Assembly (NCBI GenBank): GCA_036505595.1
Contig: DASXTE010000018.1
Location: forward strand, 6,915 to 70,914
Source: Pyrinomonadaceae bacterium
GTDB lineage: Bacteria > Acidobacteriota > Blastocatellia > Pyrinomonadales > Pyrinomonadaceae
Length of the DNA: 64,000 nucleotides
Reading direction: 5' to 3'
Shown: in pieces, positions 1,928 to 61,870 of the stretch
How the letters are laid out: the number at the start of each line of letters is the position of its first letter
How positions within the stretch are numbered: position 1 is the first letter of the stretch
The notes under the pieces: generated by a model
Told to the model about the DNA's origin: nothing
Seen by the model: the letters and a program-made list of their open reading frames with translations, nothing else
The model's database searches: none
Position numbers and translations under genes: made by a program

Positions 1928-3952
1928 TTGTTTATGAAGAAGATTGTCGAAAGCTATCGTAGGAAGCTCGCCAGCGAAGACGGCTGGGTGCTGAAGCCCG
2001 GGAGCCAGTTGCGCATCGCGCTCTGCTATCCGAATGTCTATTCGATCGGCATGGCGAACCTCGGCTTTCAGGCGATGTACGAACTCTTCAATAACATTCC
2101 TGAGGTTTCGTGCGAGCGGGTTTTCCTGCCGGACAGCAGCAGAGGGCCGAGCATCGGCGAGGGCTCAACATCCACGCGAGCCCTCCCTAACGGTCGGGCT
2201 ACTGCCCCGCGGCATCCCCGCAATGGATCGGGTTACGATTACGCCCTCCCTAATGGTCGGGCTACTGCCCCGATCAATGAACTCGCGGAATATCAACGCA
2301 CGGGAACTCCACTACTTTCCCTCGAATCACAAACTCAGGTTCGCGACTTTGACGTAATCGCGTTCTCCATTTCCTTCGAGACTGATTACGTCAACATGGC
2401 GCACATGCTGCAAATGAGCGGCGTGCCGGTTTGGGCGAAAGACAGGACAGAACGCGATCCGCTGGTTGTCATGGGGGGCGCGGCTTCGTTTCTGAATCCG
2501 GAACCGATCGCGGACTTCACTGATGTGATCGGTGTCGGCGAAGGCGAGATTCTCGGGCCGAAGCTGGTTGACGCAATCTTCGAAAATGATTCGAAGGAAG
2601 AACTGCTGCTGGCACTGGCGCGACAAGGCCGCGGTTTTTACGTGCCGTCACTCTATTTTGTCAGCTACAACGAAGACGACACGGTCGCTGCATACACGCC
2701 CACAGAAGCAGGCGTTCCGTCGCGCGTGGGCCGCGCAATCTCTGCTGAGAATCCGAAGGAAGGTAGTCTGCGCCGCGCGATTCGAAAGCAACAATTCGAT
2801 ATTGCCGCGCAACTCCGCCGTGATGAAGTATTTGCGCCATCGACCACAATTTTTGCGCCGCAAGCCGAGATGGGCGACCGATTCCTGATCGAAATATCGC
2901 GCGGCTGTTCGCAGGGTTGCCGCTTCTGCTGGGCAGGTTACAATTACTGGCCGCCACGCGTCGTGCCGGCGCGCGACATCCTCGCGAAAGCGAAAGCGTG
3001 GCGCGCAAAGACCGACAAGATTGGTTTGGTTTCAACCGCCGTCTGCGACCATCCCGAAATTAGTGAGATTCTGCACGGCCTGCGGGCTATGGATTATCGC
3101 ATCTCGGTTTCTTCGCTCCGGCTTGATCAGATTTCTGAGGAATTGTTGGACGCGCTGGTTGAATCGCGCGACCAGCAGATCGCCGTCGCGCCGGAAACCG
3201 GATCGGATCGCCTGCGTCGCGTGATCAACAAGAACCTGACCAACGACGAGATTGTGGACATCTGCGGCGCAGTTTTCGATCGCGGCATGCTGACGGTGAA
3301 ACTCTACCTGATGGTTGGCTTACCGACCGAAACCGACGAAGACCTCGCAGAAATGGTGAAACTAGTCGAGCGCATCAAGGATCGCATGTTGGAAGCCGGC
3401 AAGCGCTTCGGCCGTGCCGGCAAAATTATTCCCTCGCTTAACGGGTTTGTGCCCAAACCCAACACCCCGTTTCAGTGGGAAGCGATCTGCGATGAAAAAG
3501 AATTGAAACGACGGCTGAAGTGGGTCTGCAAACAACTCGCGCGTATTCCGAATGTAGAAGTCCGCGCGATGTCCGCGCGTATCGCCCACGAACAAGCGCT
3601 TTTCTCGTCCGGCGATCGTCGAATCGCGCCGGTGATCGAAGCGATGGCGCGTATGAATGGCGACCTCAACGCTGCGCTGCGCGAAACCGGAATCGATCCG
3701 GCGTTTCACACGAGCCGCGCGCGATCCTACGATGAAATTCTTTCGTGGGAGATTGTCGATTCGGGTCTGGGACGCGAGTTCATGGAACGCGAACACGAAC
3801 GATCGCACGAAGCTCGCTCAACCGCTCCCTGCCCTTCCGTCAATCAATGCACTCGCTGTGGAGTCTGCCCAACCACATGGCTCGCAGAAGCTCCTCCTGC
3901 GCTCGTGCAATTGCAGGCGTTCGCGACCAGTAGAGTGCCCGCTACCGTCTAA
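1928..3952 (+). CDS. radical SAM protein with N-terminal B12-binding-like domain (TIGR03960-like family)
   Basis: 674-aa ORF. Radical SAM cluster motif CSQGCRFCWAG. N-terminus ALCYPNVYSIGMANLGFQAMYELFN is typical of this family. The start may be ATG 1934. Confidence 0.8.
   Translation: MFMKKIVESYRRKLASEDGWVLKPGSQLRIALCYPNVYSIGMANLGFQAMYELFNNIPEVSCERVFLPDSSRGPSIGEGSTSTRALPNGRATAPRHPRNGSGYDYALPNGRATAPINELAEYQRTGTPLLSLESQTQVRDFDVIAFSISFETDYVNMAHMLQMSGVPVWAKDRTERDPLVVMGGAASFLNPEPIADFTDVIGVGEGEILGPKLVDAIFENDSKEELLLALARQGRGFYVPSLYFVSYNEDDTVAAYTPTEAGVPSRVGRAISAENPKEGSLRRAIRKQQFDIAAQLRRDEVFAPSTTIFAPQAEMGDRFLIEISRGCSQGCRFCWAGYNYWPPRVVPARDILAKAKAWRAKTDKIGLVSTAVCDHPEISEILHGLRAMDYRISVSSLRLDQISEELLDALVESRDQQIAVAPETGSDRLRRVINKNLTNDEIVDICGAVFDRGMLTVKLYLMVGLPTETDEDLAEMVKLVERIKDRMLEAGKRFGRAGKIIPSLNGFVPKPNTPFQWEAICDEKELKRRLKWVCKQLARIPNVEVRAMSARIAHEQALFSSGDRRIAPVIEAMARMNGDLNAALRETGIDPAFHTSRARSYDEILSWEIVDSGLGREFMEREHERSHEARSTAPCPSVNQCTRCGVCPTTWLAEAPPALVQLQAFATSRVPATV
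2180..2272 (+). repeat. two direct copies of a 30-nt REP-like unit, in frame inside the radical SAM CDS
   Basis: gccctccctaaCggtcgggctactgccccg (2180-2209) and gccctccctaaTggtcgggctactgccccg (2243-2272), 63 nt apart. Both translate as ALPNGRATAP. Related copies occur at 6949-6967, 25976-25996 (inverted) and 26070-26091. Confidence 0.85.
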
Positions 3953-4013
3953 TTCCCTTTCGAATCCAATCGGTGTCACCCGCTTATTAGCCCGACACGT
4001 GGGGGTTCTGTAG

Positions 4014-4406
4014 CTACTTAATAGTCAGAAAACTCGTGCTCTGTGCCGTGTAATCGAAATCGTAATTGTAAGTGAAGCCGGGAAATGAAATCGGACGGGT
4101 GAACTGCACGCGCACTTGTACGCGACCTTCTGTTTGTGAAGGCGTGATAACGGCATCTTCCGGAACGTGATATTCCGCTTTGCTTTTTGTGATCTGATCG
4201 GCGACCCACGCCGTGTCGTAGCCTTGTGCAGCCGCCAGATTCACCTTGTTCTGCATGGCGTCTTTGAAGTAGTAGGCATCGATGGCAACCGGAATGTACA
4301 TGTACGCGACGTAGCCGACGATCGCAACGACCGCAATGAAGACTATTAACTTCATGCGCGCGCTGCCTTTTTGACCTTGATGGCGAAGGAGTGATTCGGT
4401 ATTCAT
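4014..4406 (-). CDS. hypothetical membrane-anchored protein
   Basis: 130-aa ORF with one N-terminal TM segment (KLIVFIAVVAIVGYVAYMYIPV). An alternative start is M18 at 4355. No family recognised. Confidence 0.55.
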   Translation of the reverse strand: MNTESLLRHQGQKGSARMKLIVFIAVVAIVGYVAYMYIPVAIDAYYFKDAMQNKVNLAAAQGYDTAWVADQITKSKAEYHVPEDAVITPSQTEGRVQVRVQFTRPISFPGFTYNYDFDYTAQSTSFLTIK

Positions 4407-4412
4407 AGGTTT

Positions 4413-5567
4413 TCAGTGACGACAGAGGGCTGCGGCAAGCGCCGCCCGCAGCATCGGCGTTTCGATTTGATTTGCGTCCACGATCCGGGGACGGCCGATC
4501 CTTTCGAGCAGTACCCAATTGAGTTTGCCTTGCACTGCTTTCTTGTCCACCGTCATCGCGTCGATGATCTGCGCCGTCGAGAGATCGTCGGCGCGCGGCA
4601 ACGGCCCGCAGAGCGTGACCGCCTTGCGCAACAATTCTAACTCGCGGGAGGGGAGCATGCCTAGACTTTTCGAGATTTCGGCCGCCACAAGCATTCCATA
4701 ACCCACCGCTTCGCCATGGCGGAACCGCCGATAATTCGTTACCTTTTCCAGCGCATGCGCCGTTGTATGGCCGAAGTTGAGGATCCGTCGCGAGCGGCGG
4801 TCTGTGCGGGCCACATCCTCGCGTTCGTCGCCGGCCACGATTGAAGCTTTGAAGCGGCAGTGGGCGGCGATCGCGGCAGAGACTTCAGTCCGTGATTTCT
4901 GTTGGTCAAGAAACAAACTGAAGTCTGTTCCACTACGACGTAGCAGTTTTACCGTCTGATCAAACAGCTTACGACTCCCGACGGCTCCCTGCTTCACCAT
5001 TTCGCAGAAGCCTGAAGTTAGTTCACGTCGTGGAAGCGTTCGGAGAGTGTCGACATCGATCACGACCAGGCGAGGCTGATGAAACGCGCCGACGAGATTT
5101 TTTCCAGCCGGCAGATTGATTCCCGTCTTGCCACCGACCGAAGCATCAATCTGCGCGAGCAGCGTCGTTGGCGCCTGAACGAAAGAGATACCACGAAGAT
5201 AAATCGCCGCGGCGAATCCCGCTAGATCTCCGACCACCCCGCCGCCGAGCGCGACCACTGCGTCGTTTCGTTGCAGGCCACTTTCGCTGAGAAACTCGAC
5301 CGCACGTTGTAGTGAACGAAACGATTTCTGCCGCTCACCGTCCCGCATGAGCCAATAGTTGACAGCGAATCCTGCGCGCCTCAGACTTTGGATCGCGCGC
5401 CTGCCGTACAGCTCAAAGACGGTTCTGTTTGTAATCAGCGCCGCTCGGCGCGCCTCTGGTCCGACCGATGCGCGAAGCTCTTCGCCTAGCGTTGGCAACA
5501 GACCCGCCCCGACCTTGATTTGGTAAGTCTGTGACCGCGCCGGCAGGCGCACAGGGATGGCTGGCAT
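4413..5567 (-). CDS. aroB: 3-dehydroquinate synthase
   Basis: 384 aa. Motifs GGGVVGDLAGFAAAIYLRGISFVQAPTTLLAQIDASVGGKTGIN and NFGHTTAHALE. Confidence 0.9.
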   Translation of the reverse strand: MPAIPVRLPARSQTYQIKVGAGLLPTLGEELRASVGPEARRAALITNRTVFELYGRRAIQSLRRAGFAVNYWLMRDGERQKSFRSLQRAVEFLSESGLQRNDAVVALGGGVVGDLAGFAAAIYLRGISFVQAPTTLLAQIDASVGGKTGINLPAGKNLVGAFHQPRLVVIDVDTLRTLPRRELTSGFCEMVKQGAVGSRKLFDQTVKLLRRSGTDFSLFLDQQKSRTEVSAAIAAHCRFKASIVAGDEREDVARTDRRSRRILNFGHTTAHALEKVTNYRRFRHGEAVGYGMLVAAEISKSLGMLPSRELELLRKAVTLCGPLPRADDLSTAQIIDAMTVDKKAVQGKLNWVLLERIGRPRIVDANQIETPMLRAALAAALCRH

Positions 5568-16901: not shown

Positions 16902-17411
16902 ATGTCGGAAGCAAGTCAAAGCACTTCTGAGTTTCCCCGGCTACAGAAGATTCTGCTACCAACCGATTTCAGCGGCTGTGCCAACTTTGCGCTGCCATAC
17001 GCGGCTTCGATCGCACGCGCCACCGGAGCGACGATAATTTGCGTGCATGTGGTAGAGCCGGTCGTGCCTGCGGTTGGCTATACCGGTCTGGCCGAGCCGA
17101 TGCCGATCGCGGACATCAGCGATCAGTTGGAAGATTCTGCTGAACGACAACTGCCGAAGCTTGCCGAGTGTGACGAGTGCTCAGGCCTCGCCATGGAAGA
17201 AGTAATCGTGCATGGCGATGCCGCCGCTGAAATTGTGCGGGTCGCGGCTGAACGCCAGGTAGACTTGATTGTTATCTCATCTCACGGTCGTACCGGACTG
17301 GGTCGAATGATTTTCGGCTCGACCGCCGAAGCCGTCGTGCGACATGCCATTTGCCCCGTGCTCGTCGTAAAACCCCCACATGAGGAGGAAACTGAAGATA
17401 GTGAGCAGTGA
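16902..17411 (+). CDS. universal stress protein
   Basis: UspA fold motifs: ILLPTDFS at the N-terminus and VDLIVISSHGRTGLGRMIFGSTAEAVVRHAICPVLVV. Confidence 0.85.
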   Translation: MSEASQSTSEFPRLQKILLPTDFSGCANFALPYAASIARATGATIICVHVVEPVVPAVGYTGLAEPMPIADISDQLEDSAERQLPKLAECDECSGLAMEEVIVHGDAAAEIVRVAAERQVDLIVISSHGRTGLGRMIFGSTAEAVVRHAICPVLVVKPPHEEETEDSEQ

Positions 17412-17518
17412 GCAGCGGGCGGTGAGCAGTCAGAGTGGTTCGCCGTCTCTGTTTGGCTAATTTAGCGACTGTTCTTTCGTCTTTACTGCTCACTACTCAC
17501 TGCCCACTGCTCACTGAC
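17401..17518. repeat. heptad-word hairpin (word GTGAGCA / TGCTCAC)
   Basis: Left arm 17401-17433 reads GTGAGCA GTGAGCA GCGGGCG GTGAGCA GTCAG and contains the usp stop codon. Right arm 17487-17518 reads CTGCTCAC TACTCAC TGCCCAC TGCTCAC TGAC and ends 1 nt before the dedA ATG. The loop is about 50 nt. Confidence 0.8.
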
Positions 17519-18265: not shown

Positions 18266-19269
18266 TTATCGAATCATCCGCACCCACGCGCGTGGATCTT
18301 GCCGGAGGCACGATTGACCTCTGGCCGATCTACCTGTTTCATCCCGGCGCAACGACAGTTAACTTCGCGCTGTCGCTGCGCGCGTCTGTGCGGATTGAAA
18401 CACGTAGTGATCGTCGAATCGTGCTCGAGTCGCAGGATCGTGGCGTCGCTTTCGAAACCTCACTTGACCGCATCGACGAGCTGGCGAGCGACAAAGAGCT
18501 CGAACTCGTTTCGAAGATGGTCCACTTTTTCCGACCCACCCAAGGCTTCCGCTTAGTTGCGAACAGCGAAGCGCCGGCGGGCGCAGGCATTTCCGGTTCG
18601 TCAGCGTTGGCGATTGCGCTGATTGGCGCGCTCAATCGCTTTGTCGGCAATCGTTATGACGAGCGGAAGTTCATCACGATCGCTGCAAACATTGAAACTA
18701 CCGTCATCAAAGTGCCGGCGGGCTTTCAAGATTACTACCCGGCGTTTTACGGCGCCGTTTCGTCCATTCACTTTCGGCCGGACGGCATCGAGCGTGAGCA
18801 TTTGCAAGTTAATCCCGAAGAAATCGAACGCCGCTTTGTGATTTGCTACACCGGCGAGCCGCGCAATTCAGGAATCAATAACTGGGAGGTTTTCAAACGT
18901 CATATCGACGGTGACGCGGAAGTCTTCGAGATCTTCGAACAAATTCGTGACGCGGCAAAGCGGATGCGCGCGGCGCTTTTGGCAAACGACTGGACTGAAG
19001 TCGCCACCACGATGCGCGACGCATATCCGCATCGAAAGCGCCTGGCGCCGGGCATTACGACGCCGCAGATGGACGCCCTCGTGGAAAAGGCGTTGGCAAA
19101 TGGCGCAGAAGCCGCCAAAGTCTGCGGCGCCGGTGGCGGTGGCTGCATCGCGTTTCTCTGCACGCCTGGTCGCAAACAGGAATTGGAGAGCGCGTTGGCC
19201 GCAGAGAAAGGCGCGGAGGTTTTGAATTGGAAAGTTTCGCGTGAAGGATTGGTTGTGAACGAGAGCTAG
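18262..19269 (+). CDS. GHMP family sugar kinase
   Basis: 335 aa. GHMP motif PAGAGISGSSALAIALIGAL and C-terminal KVCGAGGGGC. The start overlaps the dedA stop (ATGA). Confidence 0.8.
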   Translation: MIIESSAPTRVDLAGGTIDLWPIYLFHPGATTVNFALSLRASVRIETRSDRRIVLESQDRGVAFETSLDRIDELASDKELELVSKMVHFFRPTQGFRLVANSEAPAGAGISGSSALAIALIGALNRFVGNRYDERKFITIAANIETTVIKVPAGFQDYYPAFYGAVSSIHFRPDGIEREHLQVNPEEIERRFVICYTGEPRNSGINNWEVFKRHIDGDAEVFEIFEQIRDAAKRMRAALLANDWTEVATTMRDAYPHRKRLAPGITTPQMDALVEKALANGAEAAKVCGAGGGGCIAFLCTPGRKQELESALAAEKGAEVLNWKVSREGLVVNES

Positions 19270-19282
19270 CGCGTTGTTGCTA

Positions 19283-19466
19283 ATGAACCGCAAAGCGGTT
19301 CGTGGCCTCCAGCCCAACGTTGCCGGGCAGCGGCTACGTTGGGAAAGAAAGAAGGAGGAGGTGAACTACCGCAAAGCGGTTGTGTCCGTCCCAGACTTTT
19401 TCTTTTTCCCACCGTAGCCGCTGCGCGACAACGGCGGGCTGGAGGTTTCAACCGCTTCGCGGTGGG
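19283..19466. repeat. large palindromic MITE-like element with CCGCAAAGCGG cores
   Basis: Left arm: gaaccgcaaagcggttcgtggcctccagccc..gcagcggctacgttgggaaag. Right arm: cccaccgtagccgctgc..gggctggaggtttcaaccgcttcgcggtg. The centre carries a third accgcaaagcggt. Confidence 0.75.
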
Positions 19467-19495
19467 AGAAAGCCAGAGCCCTTCTCAATCTTCGA

Positions 19496-20530
19496 TTATT
19501 GCGTGCGGCTCTTCACCGCTTCGACAAGCTTCGTCAAACGCTCGATCTTCTGTTCGTGAGTCTCACCTGGCACTGGCCCGGTATCGCCAACGCCCGCATA
19601 AGTTCCTCTTCTCATCAGTGAGCGATCTGGTTCGCCGCTCGGCGAAGCGGTCGAGGTCGGCTGAGTTGCGGCCGTAACTGCATCAGGAGCAAGTTCATCA
19701 GGCGTCTCTGCGCCCGCGACGGGTGATGCTGTCGCCGCAGCCTCGCTCAGAGGCGCAGCAGAGGCTGCGCCGGTCGCGGCTTGTGCTTCCGCAGCAGGTC
19801 GATGCTCGTCGGCTGCGGGAGAAGAATCAACAACAGTGACTGCCGCCGGGGGCGCTGCATGTTCTGGTCCCTCGCCGGATTCTGTCCGCTTCTTTACCGC
19901 TTCAACCAGTTGCGCGAGCCGCGCAATCTTCTGTTCGCGTGTCTCGCCCGCGACTGGTCCGGTGTCTTTGAAACCCGCGTAGGTCGATCTTCGATTTAGC
20001 GATCGATTCGGCTCGCCCGCCGGTCGCGGCGCTGGTGGAGCGGCCATCGATTTCTCGGCGACAACTTCAGCTTTTGCCGCGGGCGGCGTTGGAGTTTTAG
20101 GAACGGCAGGCGGAGTTGCCGCAGGTCTCGCAGCAGGCGCCCCGTGGGCAAGCGCTGCACCCTCAGGCTCGACGATAACGTAAACGCCCCGCTCGTTTTT
20201 CTTAATGACCGGCAGCGTTCCGCCGGCGGCTTGCAGCAGCGCAGACAATTCGGCTTCGACAAAACGGTGCTGCTTTTCCGGATCGCGAACGTGTCCCAGC
20301 GGCGGACCCATATAGAGCGTGCCGCAAATCTGGCACTTGAACAGCACGTCATCGCCGCGCAAATGAACTTCCGCCGGTTCGCCCGCGGTCTTTAGTTGCT
20401 TCAAGTGACCATTGCACAGCTTGTTCTTCTCGTTTCGTTCGTTGCAGACAGTCTGTGCGTTGGTGATGCGCTTCGGGACAGGAGCAGGCGCAGCGGCTTG
20501 AGTGGTGGATTCAGTAATGTTAGCTGACAT
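19496..20530 (-). CDS. hypothetical protein with N-terminal zinc ribbon and a duplicated C-terminal module
   Basis: Start at MSANITE. Cys pairs CNERNEKNKLCNGH ... CQICG. Two modules of about 45 aa: EPNRSLNRRSTYAGFKDTGPVAGETREQKIARLAQLVEAVKKRT and EPDRSLMRRGTYAGVGDTGPVPGETHEQKIERLTKLVEAVKSRT. Confidence 0.6.
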   Translation of the reverse strand: MSANITESTTQAAAPAPVPKRITNAQTVCNERNEKNKLCNGHLKQLKTAGEPAEVHLRGDDVLFKCQICGTLYMGPPLGHVRDPEKQHRFVEAELSALLQAAGGTLPVIKKNERGVYVIVEPEGAALAHGAPAARPAATPPAVPKTPTPPAAKAEVVAEKSMAAPPAPRPAGEPNRSLNRRSTYAGFKDTGPVAGETREQKIARLAQLVEAVKKRTESGEGPEHAAPPAAVTVVDSSPAADEHRPAAEAQAATGAASAAPLSEAAATASPVAGAETPDELAPDAVTAATQPTSTASPSGEPDRSLMRRGTYAGVGDTGPVPGETHEQKIERLTKLVEAVKSRTQ

Positions 20531-20817: not shown

Positions 20818-21288
20818 GTGCTCGCAAGTTTCTTCGGCTCAGTGTGGCGCTATCTTCCGGGAGTCATCCGTCGAAGACTTGTGCGCATCGGCCAAAGGCG
20901 GTTCACCGTAACGGCGGGCGCCTTTGTCTTCGACGATGCGGGGCGCATTCTGCTGCTCGAGCACGAGTTTCGGCCCGACAGCCGCTGGGGAATTCCCGGA
21001 GGATTTTTGAGCAAAGGTGAACAACCGGAAGCAGCGCTGCGTCGCGAATTGCGCGAAGAAGTTTCGTTGGAACTTACTAACGTCGAATTCTTCTTTGCTC
21101 GCACTCTGCCAAAACCGCGGCAAGTGGAAATCTACTTCATTTGTAATCCGGCGAATGTGCCAACACCGAGCAGCTTTGAAATCAGGCAGGCCCGGTGGTT
21201 CACCATGAACGATCTGCCGCTCGACTTGTCACAGGATCAACTTAGGCTGATCAAACGCGCGCTCAGTAGAGAAACCACTCGCGAATGA
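20818..21288 (+). CDS. NUDIX hydrolase
   Basis: Nudix box GGFLSKGEQPEAALRRELREEVSL. Confidence 0.85.
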   Translation: MLASFFGSVWRYLPGVIRRRLVRIGQRRFTVTAGAFVFDDAGRILLLEHEFRPDSRWGIPGGFLSKGEQPEAALRRELREEVSLELTNVEFFFARTLPKPRQVEIYFICNPANVPTPSSFEIRQARWFTMNDLPLDLSQDQLRLIKRALSRETTRE

Positions 21289-21334
21289 TGTATTCTACGC
21301 GGCGCAATTCATCACAATTAGTCAGGAGCAGAAG

Positions 21335-21955
21335 ATGGTCGCACCCAGTGTCCAGTTAATCCCTTCGCCTGAAGACGTAATGCAGATTCTTCGCAAGACG
21401 GGCGCCTTTCGCGAAGGCCACTTCGTTTATCCAAACGGCAAACACACCGCGCACTATTTTCAGATGCCGCTGGCGTTTCGTCTCTACGACACCGCGCGCG
21501 TATTGGCTGTGGCGCTCAGCCGCAAATTCCGAATCGACCGAGACATTGCAAGCCAGTTGCCAAAGGTCGCAGTCGTTAGTCCGAGTTCAGGCGGAATTCC
21601 GGTGGCGTTCGGTGTGCGTGAGGCGTTGAGTGCCGAGCAGATTTACTGGGCTGAACAGGAAGCCGGCAAGCGCATGTTCCGCCAGTACGTGAATCAGGGC
21701 GACATCAAACCCTGCATCATCGTGGATGACATTATTCGCAGCGGACACGCGATCGAAGAAACAGTAGCGCTCGTCAAAGGATTGGGCTCACCAATCATCG
21801 GCTGCGGCGCGATCGTAAGATTCAGTTCGGCGCCGCAGGAAGTCGCCGGCGTTCCCATCAAATCACTGGTTGAATTCGAAGAGCACTTCTACGATCGGGC
21901 TGAGGACTGCGCCGAGTGCAAGCAGGGCGTGGCCGAAGAGCATGTGAGATTCTGA
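21335..21955 (+). CDS. phosphoribosyltransferase (orotate PRT-like)
   Basis: PRPP-binding motif CIIVDDIIRSGHAIEET. Confidence 0.7.
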   Translation: MVAPSVQLIPSPEDVMQILRKTGAFREGHFVYPNGKHTAHYFQMPLAFRLYDTARVLAVALSRKFRIDRDIASQLPKVAVVSPSSGGIPVAFGVREALSAEQIYWAEQEAGKRMFRQYVNQGDIKPCIIVDDIIRSGHAIEETVALVKGLGSPIIGCGAIVRFSSAPQEVAGVPIKSLVEFEEHFYDRAEDCAECKQGVAEEHVRF

Positions 21956-21966
21956 AAAGCCGGGAA

Positions 21967-22032
21967 GCAGACGGCAGGCGGCAGGAGGCAGGGACATGGG
22001 TTGGCCAGACTGCAGGAGGCAGACGGCAGGAG
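21967..22032. repeat. heptad-word array GCAGACG (left flank of the four-helix-bundle gene)
   Basis: GCAGACG GCAGGCG GCAGGAG GCAGGGA at 21967-21993, and TGCAGGAG GCAGACG GCAGGAG at 22011-22032. Positions 22013-22032 are a perfect 20-nt reverse complement of 22466-22485. Confidence 0.85.
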
Positions 22033-22036
22033 TAAA

Positions 22037-22411
22037 CTAACCGCTGAATCTCTCTGGCTTGAGAATCATGCCGCCCAGCATTCTTCCCAGCTCTTCGTAT
22101 CGACTCGTTAAGTAAACTTGAGTGTCCGGCGACAAATAACCACAATCGCGAGCGAAGTCCAACCATACTTGTGTTTCTGTGGCTTCGCCGTCAGCGTCCA
22201 CCATCTTGCTCACGAACATCCTAGGATAGCGCTTCTTTCGGTAGCCCTCCGCAACGTTCGCTGCCACGCTGCGCGAGGCGCGTCGAATCTGATCGGTTAG
22301 CGAGTATTTTTCTTCGATGGGAAAATGCTTTGACTCTCTGAAAATTTCCATCGCCAATTCATAAGCTAGCTGGTAAGCCTTCAGGTCTCGGAATCCTCGT
22401 GGGAGTGACAT
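22037..22411 (-). CDS. four helix bundle protein (23S rRNA intervening-sequence protein family)
   Basis: 124 aa. Family signature FPIEEKYSLTDQIRRASRSVAANVAEGYRK. Confidence 0.85.
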   Translation of the reverse strand: MSLPRGFRDLKAYQLAYELAMEIFRESKHFPIEEKYSLTDQIRRASRSVAANVAEGYRKKRYPRMFVSKMVDADGEATETQVWLDFARDCGYLSPDTQVYLTSRYEELGRMLGGMILKPERFSG

Positions 22412-22417
22412 TGTTAT

Positions 22418-22486
22418 CCTGCCTCCTGCTGTTTGCCGTCTGCTTTCTGTGGTCCTGCCGTCCGCCTCCTGCCGTCTGCCTCCTGG
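22418..22486. repeat. heptad-word array CCTGCCG (right flank, complement of 21967-22032)
   Basis: CCTGCCT CCTGCTG TTTGCCG TCTGC ... CCTGCCG TCCGCCT CCTGCCG TCTGCCT CCTGG. It abuts the recR stop at 22492. Confidence 0.85.
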
Positions 22487-22491
22487 TTCTT

Positions 22492-23106
22492 CTACATCTC
22501 ATGTCGATTCGCCAGCGCCTTATCCATCGTCACTTCATCGACGTATTCCAAATCGCTTCCTACCGGCATGCCCATCGCTAAACGCGTGACGCGAACGCCG
22601 AGCGGTTTCAGTAAGCGGCTGATGTAGTTCGCAGTCGCTTCGCCTTCCGTGTTTGGATTCGTGGCGATGATCACTTCGCGAACTTCAACGCCGTCGTTGT
22701 TTTCAGGCTTCAGCCGCGGCAGCAAGCTGTCCAGCCGCAGGTCGCTCGGACGTATGCCGCGAATCGGCGACAGCGCGCCGTGCAGCACATGATAGAGGCC
22801 CTTGTAGCTGCGCGTCTTCTCAACCGCGAGCAGATCGTACGGCTGCTCGATCACGCAAAGCAGTGAACGATCGCGTGAAGGTGAAGCGCAGAAGCGGCAG
22901 GGATTAACGTCAGTCAGGTTGTTGCAGACCGAACATTCGGTGATGCGCTCTTTGACTTCGTGCAGGGCGGCAATGAGCCGTTCAACGTCAGCTTCAGGCG
23001 CGCGGAGAATGTGAAATGCCAAGCGCTGCGCTGACTTCTGCCCGATGCTAGGCAGACGCTTGAATTCGTCAATCAGTTTGGTGACGGGTTCGGCGTAATC
23101 AAGCAT
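22492..23106 (-). CDS. recR: recombination protein RecR
   Basis: 204 aa. LPSIGQKSAQRLAFHIL helix-hairpin-helix, a C4 zinc finger (CSVCNNLTDVNPCRFC) and a Toprim region. Confidence 0.95.
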   Translation of the reverse strand: MLDYAEPVTKLIDEFKRLPSIGQKSAQRLAFHILRAPEADVERLIAALHEVKERITECSVCNNLTDVNPCRFCASPSRDRSLLCVIEQPYDLLAVEKTRSYKGLYHVLHGALSPIRGIRPSDLRLDSLLPRLKPENNDGVEVREVIIATNPNTEGEATANYISRLLKPLGVRVTRLAMGMPVGSDLEYVDEVTMDKALANRHEM

Positions 23107-23110
23107 TTCG

Positions 23111-23234
23111 GTCTTTGTACTTTGAACTTTGTACTTAGTGTTTTGTCGTTTGGGCCAATCTAGCCGCGAGTTCTAAAGAGCACGAATCGCCAGGAGATCA
23201 AAGTACAAAGAACCAAGTACAAAGGACAAGAACC
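23111..23234. repeat. heptad-word hairpin (word CTTTGTA / CAAAGTA) between ybaB and recR
   Basis: Left arm 23111-23147 reads CTTTGTA CTTTGAA CTTTGTA CTTAGTG TTTTGTC. Right arm 23196-23234 reads CAAAGTA CAAAGAA CCAAGTA CAAAGGA CAAGAAC. The loop is about 48 nt. Confidence 0.8.
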
Positions 23235-23247
23235 AATTCGATTGTGT

Positions 23248-23562
23248 CTAAAACAAGTTCCCTAGTCCGGGTGGCAACATTGACCCTAGCTTGCTCTTCA
23301 TCGCTTCGTTGACTTTGCGATTGGCTTCGTTGACCGCGGCGAGAATCATGTCCTGAAGCATCTCGACGTCGCCTTCTTTGACAAGTTCCGGGTCCACTTT
23401 CAGCGCAACGATCTCGTGATCGCCCTTCATCGTTACGTTCACAACGCCGCCACCGGCGGAAGCTTCGACGCGCAGTTCTTCCATCTCGCGCGACATCTGC
23501 TCTTGCATCTGCTGCGCCTGTTTCATCATCTGCTGAATGTTGAGTCCACCCGGAAATTTCAT
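23248..23562 (-). CDS. ybaB: nucleoid-associated protein YbaB/EbfC
   Basis: 104 aa from [23 protein letters not shown]. The classic ybaB-recR pairing is present. The longer track ORF is an upstream extension. Confidence 0.9.
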
Positions 23563-23688
23563 TTTGTTAACCTCGCGATTCGAATCTGACTGCGCGAGCA
23601 GCATCGTAGCCGTCAATGAAAGCGAATGCAAAGTGGCTGGACTTCGCCCTGTGAAGTTCTGCAGAGGAAATGTTATAAGCAGGCAACT

Positions 23689-24381
23689 ATGACAAAAGCC
23701 GACGCTGCACCGCTTGTCGAGCGCACGCTCACTGCGCAAATCACGCTCTATTACGACGTCATTTCAGCTCAGACGCAGCCTGCGCCATTGCTGATTGCGT
23801 TGCACGGCTATGGCGCGAGCAAATGGCACGCGCTGCGTGAAGCGAAGATGATCGTCCCGGACGGGTTCGCTATCGCGGCCTTGCAAGCACCGCATCAGCA
23901 TTTGCGAGAACCCAAACAGCCGGGCGGGCCGCTGCGCTTCGGATTTGGCTGGCTGACGAATTTTCATCCGGAAGAATCGATTGCGATTCATCATCATGCC
24001 TTGCGGGAAATGATTGACGGGTTGTCGAACGAAGGGGTAGCCGATCGCGGTCGGATTTTTCTGCTCGGCTTTTCGCAAAGCTGCGCGTTGAACTATCGCT
24101 TTGCATTCACGCATGCCGACGTCTTGCGTGGGGTGATCGGAATTTGCGGCGGTTTGCCGGGTGATTGGGAAACTAATGAGCTTTACAAGGACACAGACGC
24201 GGCGGTGTTTCATCTTGCCGGCGAGCGCGACGAGTTTTATCCGCCGTCTCGTGTCGCGAACTACGCCACGCAGTTGCGGCAGCGCGCCAGCGATGTCGAG
24301 TTTCGCAGCTATGATGCGGGGCATGAGATTTTACCCGCAATGCGTGATGATATTCGCGAGTGGTTACGTGACAAAGCATGA
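23689..24381 (+). CDS. alpha/beta hydrolase (phospholipase/carboxylesterase family)
   Basis: [10 protein letters not shown] oxyanion region and nucleophile elbow GFSQS. Start taken at MTKADAAPL. Confidence 0.7.
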
Positions 24382-24433
24382 CGAATTAGTAATCTGGAAG
24401 GACATGACCAGACGGGAACTGACAGTTCAGTGC

Positions 24434-24629
24434 GCGAAGCGGACGCTTGGAAATAGCCCAGCGATTCATCGCTGGGTAATGGGCAAAAGAAGAATTAATG
24501 AGTCCGCAAAGCGGACGGCAGAAAATGTTGCGGGCCATACTCTGTCGCCCGTTTCACGGGCTTTTTGGTTCCTGCGGCGTTCGATTCCCAGCACTAAAGT
24601 GCTGGGCTATTGCCGCTCGTCCGCTTCGC
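24434..24629. repeat. large palindromic MITE-like element (same CGC[AG]AAGCGG family as 19283-19466)
   Basis: Left arm: cgcgaagcggacgcttggaaatagcccagcgattcatcgctggg. Right arm: cccagcactaaagtgctgggctattgccgctcgtccgcttcgcg. Central gtccgcaaagcggac. It is read through by the spurious 5' part of track ORF 24161..25309. Confidence 0.75.
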
Positions 24630-24664
24630 GGACTTCCAAACCCATCCGGACAAACGGAATTGTT

Positions 24665-33240: not shown

Positions 33241-33345
33241 ATTTGACATTTGACATTTGTCATCTGTCATTTAGTCATTTAGCAGGGCGTGTCCCTCGCT
33301 GAACCAATGGCAAATGAAAAATGTCAAATCCCAAATGTCAAATGG
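33241..33345. repeat. heptad-word hairpin (word ATTTGAC / CAAATGT)
   Basis: Left arm 33241-33282 reads ATTTGAC ATTTGAC ATTTGTC ATCTGTC ATTTAGTC ATTTAG. Right arm 33311-33345 reads CAAATGA AAAATGT CAAATCC CAAATGT CAAATGG. ATG 33307 of the next gene lies 2 nt upstream of the right arm, at the 3' end of the loop, so codons 2-13 are translated from the right arm. Confidence 0.8.
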
Positions 33346-34971
33346 ATTGTTGCTTTCGCTGTCCTTCTGCTTATCGCAGCCGGCTTCCGCATTTCCGTCG
33401 CGCATTGGTTGCCGAACGACTCGCCTGACGATGGACGCGTCTACGCGCAGATGGCGCGGAACGTTCTTGAGCAACATGTCTATTCCCACGATGCTGAACC
33501 ACCGTACAACCCTTCGTTGATTCGACTTCCGGGTTATCCGCTCTTTCTCGCGGCGATCTATGCGGTCTTCGGCCACGATAACAACGGTGCAGTCCGCGTC
33601 ATCCAGGCACTGATTGATACAGCGACGTGCGTACTGATCGCGCTGATCGCGTTTTTCTGGCAGCCTGACGAGAAGAAGAAACTTACGAGCGCGGCGGCGG
33701 CCCTCGCATTGGCCGTGGTGTGTCCATTCACGACGATTTACGCAGCGACGATCCTGACAGAAGTGCCAACCAATTTTCTGCTGATGGCCATGTTGGTTGC
33801 GGTGACGCTGGCTTTCAGGAAATCAACCACAGAGGGCACAGAGGAAGACAACCAGACAGAATTCAAGACTGCATTGGCTTGGTGGTGTGTTGCAGGATTG
33901 ATTGGCGGGCTGGCAGTGCTGATGCGACCCGACAACGGATTGTTTCTGGCGGCGGTCGGGATCACCCTGGTCGTTTCTAACCTTTGGCCTTTGGTTTTAG
34001 GTCTTTGGCAAAGACCAAAAGCCAAAGACCCAAGATCAAAGACCCGCATCGCGCGACTCATTGTCTCGGGCGCCGTTCTCCCTTTCGCATTCGTGCTGGT
34101 GCTCGCTCCGTGGACGATTCGCAACTGGCGCATCTTTCATCTTTTCCAACCGCTCTCGCCTGCTCACGCTGAAATGCCCGGCGAGTTTGTCCCGCACGGT
34201 TACCTGCTCTGGGTGCGCACTTGGCTCGACGACGATAGTTACGTCGCGCCGTTTCTCTGGTCGCTGGATACCGATGAAATCGATGTTGACGATCTGCCGG
34301 CCGGCGCGTTCGATTCCACCGAAGAAAAGAACCGCGTTGCGGCGTTGCTCGACAAATACAACAGTGCGGACGAGTCGGAGGCGCCAGCTGCGGACGAAGG
34401 AACCGAAACCAATCCCAACCCGAAAGCGACACCGCAACCTTCGCCTGAAGCCCAGAAGAACGAAGAAGAAGACAAAGGTGATGAGTCTGAAGCGTCTGAA
34501 GAACCGCCCTCGGTGGAGATGACGCCGGAGATTGATGTCGGCTTTGCCCAAATAGCGCGCGAAAGAATCGCGCGGCATCCGTTTCGTTACTACATTTGGC
34601 TGCCGATCAAACGCGCACGCACGATGTGGTGCGACACCCATTCGCAGTACTGGCCATTTGAAGGAACGCTACTGCCTCTCGACGACCTGGATTACGAACA
34701 TCATCAGCAAATCTGGCTGCCGCTGTTTGCGGGATTGACGGCCGTTTACACGCTGCTGGGTTTACTGGGTGCGTGGTTTTTGTGGCGTACGCGAAAACTC
34801 GACACGCGGCGGTGGCTGCTGCTAGTGACGCTCGCAATCCTCCTGAGACTCATGCTCTTTTCGTTTCTGGAAAATCCCGAGCCGCGCTACCTGGTAGAGT
34901 TCTTTCCGTTCCTGTCAGTGCTCGGTGGGCTGTTCGTTGGGCGGCTGTTGCCAGCCGAATTGATCAGGTAA
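33307..34971 (+). CDS. GT-C fold membrane glycosyltransferase (family 39 / ArnT-PMT-like)
   Basis: Multiple TM helices. First-loop motif LPNDSPDDGRVYAQMARNVLE and LPGYPLFLAAIY. Acidic low-complexity periplasmic insert. Confidence 0.7.
   Translation: MANEKCQIPNVKWIVAFAVLLLIAAGFRISVAHWLPNDSPDDGRVYAQMARNVLEQHVYSHDAEPPYNPSLIRLPGYPLFLAAIYAVFGHDNNGAVRVIQALIDTATCVLIALIAFFWQPDEKKKLTSAAAALALAVVCPFTTIYAATILTEVPTNFLLMAMLVAVTLAFRKSTTEGTEEDNQTEFKTALAWWCVAGLIGGLAVLMRPDNGLFLAAVGITLVVSNLWPLVLGLWQRPKAKDPRSKTRIARLIVSGAVLPFAFVLVLAPWTIRNWRIFHLFQPLSPAHAEMPGEFVPHGYLLWVRTWLDDDSYVAPFLWSLDTDEIDVDDLPAGAFDSTEEKNRVAALLDKYNSADESEAPAADEGTETNPNPKATPQPSPEAQKNEEEDKGDESEASEEPPSVEMTPEIDVGFAQIARERIARHPFRYYIWLPIKRARTMWCDTHSQYWPFEGTLLPLDDLDYEHHQQIWLPLFAGLTAVYTLLGLLGAWFLWRTRKLDTRRWLLLVTLAILLRLMLFSFLENPEPRYLVEFFPFLSVLGGLFVGRLLPAELIR
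33981..34044. repeat. heptad-word hairpin (word CCTTTGG / CAAAGAC) in frame inside a CDS
   Basis: CCTTTGG CCTTTGG TTTTAGG TCTTTGG, then CAAAGAC CAAAAGC CAAAGAC CCAAGAT CAAAGAC. It is translated as LWPLVLGLWQRPKAKDPRSKT between TM segments. Confidence 0.8.
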
Positions 34972-37448: not shown

Positions 37449-37553
37449 GACTTTGCGTTCCTTTGCGCCTTTGCGACTTGGCGTGAATCGATAATGGGAA
37501 ATGATAATTCACGCAAAGGCGCGAAGACGCAAAGTGGCGCAAAGAACAAAGTC
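37449..37553. repeat. word hairpin (word CTTTGCG / CGCAAAG); probable gltX terminator
   Basis: Left arm reads CTTTGCG TTCCTTTGCG CCTTTGCG ACTTGGCG TGAAT. Right arm reads ATTCA CGCAAAGG CGCGAAGA CGCAAAGTGG CGCAAAGAA CAAAGTC. The right arm overlaps the gltX stop at 37552. Confidence 0.8.
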
Positions 37554-39057: not shown

Positions 39058-39139
39058 AAAGAAAAGGCAAAAGTAAAAAGGTAAAAGGCAAAAGAACGAG
39101 CCACGAGTTTTGCCTTTTTACTTTTTCCTTTTGCCTTTG
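39058..39139. repeat. heptad-word hairpin (word AAAAGGC / GCCTTTT) between tRNA-Ser and gltX
   Basis: Left arm reads AAAAGGC AAAAGTA AAAAGGT AAAAGGC AAAAG. Right arm reads TTTTGCC TTTTTAC TTTTTCC TTTTGCC TTTG. The loop is aacgagccacga. It starts directly next to the gltX start codon and ends 6 nt from the tRNA 3' end. Confidence 0.8.
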
Positions 39140-50664: not shown

Positions 50665-50675
50665 AGCGAGCACGA

Positions 50676-50766
50676 GCCACGAAAAGGCACAAAAAGCACA
50701 AAAGGAAAACTCAGCTCTGATCGGAGTTCGTTTTTCTGATTTGTGCCTTTTGTGCATTTTTGTGGC
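50676..50766. repeat. word hairpin (word GCACAAAA / TTTTGTGC)
   Basis: Left arm: GCCACGAAAAGGCACAAAAAGCACAAAAGGAAAAC. Right arm: GATTTGTGCCTTTTGTGCATTTTTGTGGC. It fills the cupin / polA-like spacer. Confidence 0.8.
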
Positions 50767-50775
50767 TAAATCAAT

Positions 50776-52560: not shown

Positions 52561-52562
52561 TT

Positions 52563-52680
52563 CCCTCTCCCACTGGGAGAGGGTTAGGGTGAGGGTCCGA
52601 AGGTTAGCGGGCGGCAACTTCTTTTTTTGTTGCTCGTTAGCTTCGCCCCTCACCCCGGCCCTCTCCCAAAAGGAGAGGGA
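52563..52680. repeat. inverted pair of ccctctccc..gggagaggg REP units
   Basis: ccctctcccactgggagagggttagggtgaggg and cccctcaccccggccctctcccaaaaggagaggg. A single related unit occurs at about 62866-62895. Confidence 0.75.
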
Positions 52681-60732: not shown

Positions 60733-61422
60733 ATGCGTCGCGCAACACGAATAAACGGATTCACGCTTATCGAGCTGGTGATCACGGTCGCCGTCCTCGC
60801 GATTTTGACCCTCGGCGTGATTCCGCTCATGCGAGTTTCAGTCAAGCGGCAAAAAGAAGAGCAATTGCGCGCCGCGTTACGCGAGATGCGCGAAGCGATC
60901 GATCAATTTCATCGCGAGGCGCTGATGGGGGCCTCAATGCAGGCCATACAGCAGGCTCAGTCGTCTACGGCACAACAGGAGCAGGCACCGCGGTCCACCG
61001 CGGCCCAGACGCAGCAGAACATTTTTGCCGATCCGCGGGTGCGTGTTTTCATTACCGATCAGACAATCTTCAGCTCCGACAACCCGGATCGTTATCCGCC
61101 CGATCTGGAAACACTTGTCGATGGTGTGGACGTGCTGCCGTTAACGCTGCCTGCCCAATTGCAAGGCGGCCAGGGAATTACGGGCGCCGGCATACTTGAG
61201 CGAACTGAAAATTCGGCAATTCCCAAAACTAAGATTTATCTGCGGCAGCTTCCCATCGATCCGATGACCGGCAAAGCTGACTGGTGCGTCAGCTCCAGTT
61301 ATGAACCCGCCGAAGATTCGAAACACGGCTGTCACTCGAGCGGCGATGGCGAAAATGTCTTCAATGTTCACTCGAGGTCAGAAGGCGAAGCGCTTGATGG
61401 GACAAAATACCGTGACTGGTAA
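60733..61422 (+). CDS. prepilin-type N-terminal cleavage/methylation domain protein (pseudopilin)
   Basis: MRRATRING/FTLIELVITVAVLAILTLGVIP class III signal. Confidence 0.8.
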   Translation: MRRATRINGFTLIELVITVAVLAILTLGVIPLMRVSVKRQKEEQLRAALREMREAIDQFHREALMGASMQAIQQAQSSTAQQEQAPRSTAAQTQQNIFADPRVRVFITDQTIFSSDNPDRYPPDLETLVDGVDVLPLTLPAQLQGGQGITGAGILERTENSAIPKTKIYLRQLPIDPMTGKADWCVSSSYEPAEDSKHGCHSSGDGENVFNVHSRSEGEALDGTKYRDW

Positions 61423-61506
61423 CGGCAGACGGCAGACGGCGGGGAGCAGAAGGCAGGAGACAGAGCGAACTTTTCTGCCGTCTGGCTCCTGCCGCCTGGC
61501 GCCTGG
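61423..61506. repeat. heptad-word hairpin (word GGCAGAC / GTCTGCC), same word family as 21967-22486
   Basis: Left arm reads GGCAGAC GGCAGAC GGCGGGGA GCAGAAG GCAGGAG ACAG. Right arm reads TCTGCCG TCTGGCT CCTGCCG CCTGGCG CCTGG. It starts 1 nt after the upstream stop codon and runs into the G-F cleavage-site codons of the next pseudopilin. Confidence 0.85.
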
Positions 61507-61870
61507 GTTTACTCTTCTCGAGCTGATGATCGTAATTTCGGTCATCATCATTCTCGCCGCGATCGCTCTGCCGCAATATCAAAAAACGATCATGCACGCG
61601 CGCGAAACGGTTCTGCGCGACGATCTATACCGGATGCGCGTTCTGATCGATCAGTACGCCGCCGACAAGGGCAAGCTGCCGCAATCGCTGGAAGACCTGG
61701 TCAGCGCTGGTTACATGCGCGAAATCCCCAAGGATCCAATTACCGACCAGCCGGATTGGGTGCCGGTGCAGGGCGACGACCCTTACACGGGCGAAAGTGG
61801 CATGATCGATATCCGCAGCGCATCTACGGAAGCCTCGACTGAAGGAGGCAAGCCATATAATGAGTGGTAG
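61475..61870 (+). CDS. gspG: GspG-like major pseudopilin; start codon unresolved
   Basis: GFTLLELMIVISVIIILAAIALPQYQK... and LPQSLEDLVSAGYMREIPKDPITDQPDW are classic GspG sequences. There is no in-frame ATG, GTG or TTG between the upstream stop (61422) and the GF site (61505). Only CTG codons at 61475 and 61496 are available. Confidence 0.6.
   Translation: MPSGSCRLAPGFTLLELMIVISVIIILAAIALPQYQKTIMHARETVLRDDLYRMRVLIDQYAADKGKLPQSLEDLVSAGYMREIPKDPITDQPDWVPVQGDDPYTGESGMIDIRSASTEASTEGGKPYNEW

Follow-up and report, generated by a model that had tools for sequence, protein, structure and literature searches.

A 64,000-nt stretch of DNA from a Pyrinomonadaceae bacterium of the phylum Acidobacteriota (GenBank assembly GCA_036505595.1, contig DASXTE010000018.1, positions 6,915–70,914; hereafter the window) carries a gene for a four-helix-bundle (4HB) protein of the S23p / 23S_rRNA_IVP family in the spacer between a phosphoribosyltransferase-like (PRT-like) gene and recR. 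The gene is enclosed by complementary arrays of heptanucleotides, and a survey of its homologues demonstrates that enclosure of non-rRNA 4HB genes by GCAG-type arrays is systematic and extends across phyla. This arrangement, most likely an intervening sequence (IVS)-type module outside rRNA, is the new observation reported here. The 4HB protein family, rRNA IVSs, and inverted heptad arrays were each already known (PMC4990558; PMC4692102; PMC4679880; PMC10053308), but no report of non-rRNA 4HB genes systematically enclosed by complementary GCAG-type arrays was found in openly searchable full text, subscription-only papers (e.g., Ralph and McClelland 1993) being outside reach. We favor, with somewhat better than even confidence, a self-contained gene module of IVS type as the explanation of the region; the ends of its transcript would pair to form an RNase III-type duplex.

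The PRT-like gene (21335..21955, + strand; weak matches to PF00156 and pyrE_Therm) and recR (22492..23106, − strand; TIGR00615, 254 bits) are convergent, as the first-pass annotation of this DNA had read them, and are separated by a spacer of 536 nt. The 4HB gene (22037..22411, − strand, 124 aa) points in the same direction as recR. Its open reading frame (ORF) matches PF05635 at 111.1 bits (cutoff 33.8; E = 3.8e-32) over profile positions 1–105 of 106 and the four helix bundle protein profile TIGR02436 at 102.2 bits (cutoff 24; E = 1.7e-29), in agreement with its earlier assignment to the rRNA-IVS family. The nearest solved structures by sequence are PDB 2GSC (E = 1.8e-8) and 2RLD (E = 1.4e-4), each deposited with five chains. 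The module, defined as the 4HB gene plus its arrays, occupies the whole spacer from the PRT stop codon, which adjoins it, to the recR stop codon, and the 4HB gene is its sole ORF. The genes at the locus encode a NUDIX protein, PRT, RecR, YbaB, a hydrolase, and a DUF1287 protein.

We know of no catalytic motif in the 4HB protein. S23p/four-helix-bundle proteins form a large family, for which a role is known only in diversity-generating retroelements (DGRs). No reverse transcriptase family was detected within ∼5 kb of the 4HB gene, and the protein falls below the cutoffs of the DGR Avd profiles (NF033474, 34.2 bits against a cutoff of 80; PF22296, 34.4 bits against a cutoff of 40). A permissive Rfam scan of positions 21000–24000 returned no rRNA and no match on the module, and PADLOC returned no defense-system match for the module.

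On the + strand, two purine-rich array blocks lie to the left of the gene and two complementary blocks to the right. The outer arm on the PRT side (21955..21995) contains array L1 (21965–21992; GCAGACG/GCAGGCG/GCAGGAG on the + strand), detected by Tandem Repeats Finder (TRF) with period 7 and 3.7 copies and taking part in inverted repeats I1, I2, and I4; in the gene-sense transcript it forms the distal 3′ arm, with CTGCC words. The inner arm on the same side (array L2, 22006..22032; TRF period 14) is the gene-proximal 3′ arm and begins 5 nt past the 4HB stop codon. On the recR side, the degenerate inner array R1 (22418..22445; inverted repeats I2, at 89%, and I5) provides the gene-proximal 5′ arm, and the outer array R2 (22453..22485; TRF period 14, 2.4 copies, 94% matches; inverted repeats I3 and I7) provides the distal 5′ arm, which begins 6 nt past the recR stop codon. 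L2 holds one half of a perfect 20-nt inverted repeat (I7, 22013–22032 versus 22466–22485). Further inverted repeats span 28 nt at 89% (I2) and 48 nt at 77% (I1), the latter extending to both stop codons. The word GGCAGACGGCAGG, allowing at most two mismatches, gave 14 matches against 1.8 expected (0/100 shuffles reach 14), and these are confined to the two module flanks and to 61424–61500, plus one stray. The gene, the arrays, and the 20-nt repeat were all recovered where the first-pass annotation had placed them.

The 548-nt gene-sense RNA has a minimum free energy of −208.6 kcal/mol (z = −4.55), and none of 100 shuffled sequences is as stable. The predicted structure consists of nested long-range stems in which 22452–22492 pairs with 21955–21995 on the outside and ∼22423–22449 pairs with ∼22001–22028 on the inside. 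Each flank folded by itself, on either strand, does no better than shuffles (z = 0.0, +0.8, +0.6, and −0.7). In these folding models the flanks pair only with each other and not locally. A Shine-Dalgarno (SD)-like AGGAGG, read from the sequence at 22422..22427 on the − strand, falls within the predicted stem; it is supplied by the final heptad of the 5′ arm and precedes the ATG by 10 nt. A terminator scan of the module found no terminator-like site and no GC-rich stem followed by a T-run after either stop codon. A promoter scan limited to sigma-70-type consensus found no site in the module or between recR and the 4HB gene.

The generality of this arrangement was evaluated among 80 homologous loci collected by a protein scan of one genome per species, drawn from Acidobacteriota, Chloroflexota (Anaerolineales), Bacteroidota, Nitrospira (Nitrospirota), and others. 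For each gene, the 200 nt upstream were scored for complementarity to the 200 nt downstream. Scores above the threshold of 30 were obtained for 63% of the 79 scorable 4HB genes, as compared with 2% of 499 neighboring ORFs from the same loci (Mann-Whitney p = 8e-26), in agreement with the earlier expectation that other 4HB copies would be flanked by inverted arrays. The heptad consensus is GCAG-(T/A)-A-(G/A) on the coding strand upstream of the gene, with the complement downstream: in-register GCAG heptads number 301 on the coding strand versus 12 on the other strand upstream, and 19 versus 234 downstream. The GCAG core is invariant across phyla, and heptad positions 5–7 are variable. An SD-like motif is present at −20 to −4 in 39 of the 80 loci, and the upstream neighbor is co-directional with the 4HB gene in 66 of 78.

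The association was also approached from the repeats, by a census over ∼1 Mb of loci in which inverted repeats were located first and their arms typed as GCAG or other. Of the 60 GCAG-type inverted repeats, 51 have a 4HB gene in the loop, against 6 of the 129 with other arms (Fisher odds ratio 116, p = 7.5e-30); the association persists, with p = 4e-4, among loci that had not been chosen for 4HB genes. Three of the nine GCAG-armed exceptions contain 4HB pseudogenes inside intact hairpins. Homologues on Nostoc and Brasilonema plasmids (42–54% identity) lie between GCAGAGG/GCAGGGG arrays and the complementary arrays. Copies from Acidobacteriota and Anaerolineales share 71–73% identity, several genomes hold multiple 4HB copies, and six of the 80 homologous loci are at the PRT/recR site. 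No rRNA was found in eight loci from other phyla that were scanned for it. Because GCAG-type arms are specific to 4HB genes, we conclude that arrays and gene form one unit, which has been kept together well past neutral saturation. Complementary-array packaging is the usual state of 4HB genes across at least six phyla, including a copy inside a real 23S rRNA gene.

Several loci vary the pattern. GCAG-type hairpin loops in L029 (4995–6500) and L071 (4928–6403; loop of 1430 nt) hold the 4HB gene plus a second ORF, which encodes 286 aa in L029, and the module may therefore be able to carry extra cargo. A Tunicatimonas metagenome-assembled genome (MAG; L082, ∼4900–5450) has hexamer (GGCAGT) arrays instead of heptamers, and in an Oscillatoria plasmid (L178) the arrays of the two sides are both purine-rich and have the same orientation instead of being inverted. 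The 4HB genes of L017 (1998–2536) and L028 (4912–5436) lie within arms of reversed polarity (CTGCC-type 5′ arm), as compared with the usual polarity in 51; the reversal may reflect adjacent modules. A second 4HB clade (32% identity) occupies the ybaB/recR spacer of three relatives (L018, 3790–4235; L087, 2003–2476; L089, 1798–2202) and has its own flanking heptads, GGAGCCA/GGGGCCA and complement (the GGRGYCR family, in three species). The ybaB/recR spacer of the window and of L002 contains a gene-less CTTTGTA hairpin. Genes for PD-(D/E)XK 'GxxExxY' proteins (PF13366) are also bracketed by repeats, namely inverted heptad arrays (CACAAAG/CTTTGTG) in L043 (4906–5388) and a duplicated long hairpin in L084 (6396–6803).

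The history of the PRT/recR site was reconstructed from contigs that encode an identical RecR protein. These fall into two groups. The module-bearing contigs are 99.8–99.9% identical to the window, and all four independent assemblies (the window, L001, L003, and L004) have one orientation. The contigs of the other group, which includes NCBI MAG GCA_036001745.1, are ∼96% identical to the window in nucleotide sequence and have an empty site, an allele that the first-pass annotation had proposed looking for in relatives. In the empty allele the recR stop is followed by GCGCGCGCAGCGCGC, a 15-nt palindrome, and then by the PRT stop, with the palindrome replacing the 536-nt module. Homology between filled and empty alleles ends exactly at both stop codons (at 21955 on the PRT side), with no target-site duplication at the junctions and no transposase or integrase in the module. 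The filled site retains none of the 15-nt palindrome, and the empty allele has no GCAG hairpin.

Eight other contigs of related bacteria (L007–L011, L018, L087, and L106) carry a 4HB gene in the same spacer. In seven of these (L007–L011, L018, and L087), with RecR identities of 86–93%, 4HB identity (80–88%) tracks that of PRT (82–88%) and RecR. The ratio of nonsynonymous to synonymous substitution (dN/dS) among 4HB orthologues is 0.03–0.08, and dS is saturated. Judged by these sequence comparisons, the 4HB gene is a functional, old, and vertically inherited resident of the PRT/recR site, since the orthologues diverge in step with recR and PRT and dS is saturated. Because relatives with RecR identity of at least 86% mostly carry the module, the empty allele looks, by parsimony in the outgroup comparison, like a derived loss. 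The gene is flipped relative to the window in L007, L008, L010, and L087 and in the more distant L106. L007 is the closest relative (RecR 93%), and at least two inversion events must therefore have occurred. Reverse-complementing a purine arm–gene–pyrimidine arm unit leaves its arms unchanged, and recombination between them therefore suffices to turn the loop around. Independent insertions in the two orientations were considered and rejected as unnecessary, given this symmetry of the arms and the tracking of host divergence by the orthologues.

Further relatives (RecR 75–82%) have PRT/recR spacers of 0–8 nt or gene-less heptad hairpins built from many words. Among individual contigs, L095 has a gene-less GCAG hairpin, L109 and L110 have one-arm CTGCC remnants, L106 and L114 have 4HB genes at 65–70% identity, L089 and L090 have small toxin-antitoxin-like gene pairs, and L105 has a gene flanked by repetitive extragenic palindromic (REP) sequences.

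The module, in the explanation that we favor, consists of an S23p/Avd-like 4HB gene with complementary degenerate GCAG-N-A-R heptad arrays as its 5′ and 3′ untranslated flanks. It would have no promoter of its own and be read through from recR, or from the PRT-like gene in lineages where it is flipped; read-through is weakly supported by the prevalence of co-directional upstream neighbors (66/78) together with the lack of a detected promoter. In the transcript, the arms would close a duplex of ∼45 bp plus ∼25 bp that buries the AGGAGG ribosome-binding site. RNase III would then cut the duplex as it does in rRNA IVSs, detaching the 4HB message from the host operon and thereby setting how well it is translated and how stable it is. 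In DNA, the inverted arms would permit inversion and deletion of the loop, which would explain the orientation changes, one-arm remnants, and gene-less GCAG hairpins in relatives. Going further, 4HB genes with complementary GCAG arrays might represent a widespread, undescribed class of RNA (or DNA)-protein modules and the free-living source of rRNA IVSs, with a pentameric protein that recognizes the heptad duplex and controls RNase III processing or helps to create and spread heptad-array hairpins; we hold this extension to be speculative and rather improbable.

Several observations weigh against the module as we have described it. About one third of the homologues have no detectable flank complementarity within 200 nt. 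RNase III cleavage of the module is plausible, the argument for it being the analogy with rRNA IVSs. The promoter scan was limited to sigma-70-type consensus, and the module may have its own promoter. A test for G·U wobble at 53 loci counted 92 G·U-type mismatches, which the gene-sense RNA would tolerate, versus 118 A·C-type mismatches (p = 0.08). This result does not favor selection on the gene-sense RNA and leaves DNA hairpins, or both transcripts, as possible targets of selection. Finally, the GCAG core is conserved beyond the needs of pairing, which hints at a sequence-specific partner, possibly the 4HB pentamer itself.

The first-pass annotation had suggested a mobile or insertable cassette that targets hairpin loops. 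A gene that was recently mobile, with or without its arrays, and that entered the loops of pre-existing intergenic hairpins would fit the presence/absence polymorphism between ∼96% identical contigs with homology breaking exactly at the stop codons, the different occupants of the PRT/recR spacer in relatives (diverged 4HB genes, toxin-antitoxin pairs, a REP-flanked gene, and varied hairpins), the small share of homologous loci at this site (6/80) with multiple copies in several genomes, the 71–73% identity between Acidobacteriota and Anaerolineales copies, and the copies inside rRNA helices. The arm words are not arbitrary, however: the strong association of GCAG-type arms with 4HB genes (odds ratio 116) means that the hairpins around the gene are no random sample. 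In addition, the orthologues diverge in step with recR and PRT with saturated dS, the apparently derived empty allele lacks a GCAG hairpin and the filled site lacks a palindrome remnant, and the module has no target-site duplication, transposase, integrase, or PADLOC or Rfam match. Although the PRT/recR spacer is a hot spot, the 4HB module does not look like a cassette that enters hairpins of any kind. The suggestion of hairpin-loop targeting is accordingly set aside, and we judge recent mobility to be fairly unlikely. It also seems unlikely that the arrays, as duplex RNA or DNA, serve principally to be recognized by a pentameric 4HB protein, for autoregulation or protection, with pairing of the arms being secondary. 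This possibility draws on the invariance of the GCAG core across phyla while positions 5–7 vary, on the separate conserved word family (GGRGYCR, three species) of the 32% identical 4HB clade in the ybaB/recR spacer, on the words used by the IVS copies (GACAGAT in Coxiella and CAGAGGA in Azospirillum), and on the homologue bAvd, which binds nucleic acid and reverse transcriptase in DGRs. Shared descent can account for the correlation between word family and protein clade, though, and gene-less GCAG hairpins occur at conserved sites unrelated to 4HB genes (the pilin operon described below).

It is very improbable that the module is an invertible DNA switch, with inverted arms whose role is to turn the gene around often and let it be read at some times from PRT and at others from recR. 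Both orientations do occur among the orthologues, the flipped gene of the closest relative L007 requires at least two inversions, and recombination between arms would suffice. On the other hand, no invertase is encoded nearby, the four assemblies at 99.8–99.9% identity all have the same orientation, and the inversions lie between species and not within a population. The first-pass annotation had named as the contrary case two independent terminators of the convergent PRT-like gene and recR, with an unrelated small gene between them, and the position of the arrays adjoining both stop codons is what such terminators would lead one to expect. We consider this scarcely credible and reject it because the flanks fold only together (z = −4.55, versus z between −0.7 and +0.8 for either flank alone) and the scans find no terminator-like site, that is, no GC-rich stem with a T-run. 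Moreover, the same arrays flank 4HB genes that lie between co-directional genes (34 of the 71 loci with both neighbors called) and within a 23S rRNA gene.

The word family recurs without a 4HB gene elsewhere in the window, as the first-pass annotation had reported for a site near 61.4 kb. This GCAG-family hairpin (61422..61506, + strand) lies at the junction of two pseudopilin genes: it comes after the stop of one and extends to the G|FTLLE cleavage motif of the other, and it is read through within a ∼37-aa prepilin leader (coding region 61397–61870). The long leader starts farther upstream, its first part overlapping the end of the gene before it. In six orthologous operons (L168–L175) the hairpin is found at the same place and in the same frame, with differing words (GCAGACG, GCAGAAG, GCAGTGA, and GGGCAAA) and co-varying arms. 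Because of this retention with co-varying arms, the hairpin is, on comparative sequence evidence, a conserved structural element in its own right and not debris of a 4HB module. An interpretation of the 84-nt hairpin as a recent in-frame insertion into a short prepilin leader, with CTGG direct repeats, was rejected because homologues from many species share the long leader and have a hairpin at the corresponding position. A second gene-less GCAG-type hairpin, with GCAGTGA words and a loop of ∼60 nt, is located at 17400..17516.

Other heptad hairpins fill spacers in the window almost from stop to start (1852–1927, 23113–23229, 33241–33344, 33981–34044, 37460–37552, 39062–39138, and 50675–50767), each with its own word (CAGAGGT, CTTTGTA, ATTTGTC, CCTTTGG, AAAAGGC, and others). 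The 23113–23229 hairpin has identical arms in L002 and a 7-nt indel in the loop. The earlier description of the other loci in the window as word hairpins in convergent gaps does not hold, since most (1852, 23113, 50675, and 61422) lie between co-directional genes. A REP-like 48-nt inverted repeat (CCTCCAGCCCAACGTTGC...) is present at 19306–19445, and the ∼250-nt segment around it (19262–19512) is replaced by ∼32 nt in the 96% identical L002. The same REP-like sequence brackets a Y1_Tnp (RAYT-like) gene in L008 (1815–2267), and REP was seen in L050 as well. Two long inverted repeats are not built from heptads: 48 nt at 79% complementarity (24429–24634) and 34 nt at 82% (52562–52680; GGGAGAGGG-type).

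Where rRNA IVSs come from has been asked since the early 1990s. The window locus and ∼60 others indicate that the stem-plus-ORF anatomy of IVSs is not special to rRNA, and thereby point to rRNA IVSs as insertions of a module that existed beforehand. The conserved GCAG heptad core provides a concrete sequence rule for finding such modules, and the surplus of heptanucleotide repeats that has long been noted in bacterial genomes becomes tied to a specific gene family. Under the explanation of an IVS-type module outside rRNA, function becomes open to test in three respects: processing by RNase III, the affinity of the protein for its own repeats, and the dynamics of inversion and loss.

Among known systems, REP/REPIN elements with RAYT (Y1 transposase) resemble the module in that a small gene lies between inverted repeats, which are also found without a gene at other places in the genome. 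They differ from it in that REP arms are unique-sequence palindromes, not heptad arrays, and RAYT is a known transposase. The inverted heptanucleotide arrays of Xanthomonas (GGGAATC) and the heptamers of cyanobacteria are likewise intergenic and composed of convergent 7-nt units capable of forming stem-loops, with lengths that vary between close relatives (PMC4692102); unlike the module, they were described without an enclosed gene, use other words, and have no reported 4HB link in the literature searched. The DGR protein bAvd shares distant homology within the four-helix-bundle superfamily (PMC10053308), as reflected in weak matches to PF22296 and NF033474. The window protein, in contrast, is below both curated cutoffs, and no reverse transcriptase or template/variable repeat is nearby.

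The closest likeness in layout, and the one that the first-pass annotation had drawn, is to the 23S rRNA IVSs with an S23p ORF in Coxiella burnetii, Leptospira, and Azospirillum. Those IVSs lie in the 23S gene, at helix 25 or 45, whereas the window module lies outside rRNA and fills the spacer of two convergent protein genes; it also has two array blocks per side and is probably part of an mRNA. RNase III excision, which has been shown for IVSs, is a prediction for the module. In Coxiella, the IVS is closed by a 28-bp terminal stem, GACAGAT heptads precede its S23p ORF, and RNase III cuts it, with cleavage removing the SD (PMC4990558). In Azospirillum lipoferum AZO_p2, the 23S rRNA gene (Rfam LSU rRNA at 2283–5481 of the locus) contains a 42% identical 4HB homologue (ORF match at 3501–3830), flanked by CAGAGGA/CGGAGGA heptads and their complement. 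Both the Azospirillum copy and the Coxiella IVS thus share the anatomy of heptads, stem, and ORF. The window module and the rRNA IVSs have in common a protein of the same family and an ORF in the loop of a long stem that their complementary termini form. In both, purine-rich heptamers in tandem immediately precede the ORF, their complement follows it, and an SD-like sequence falls within the stem.

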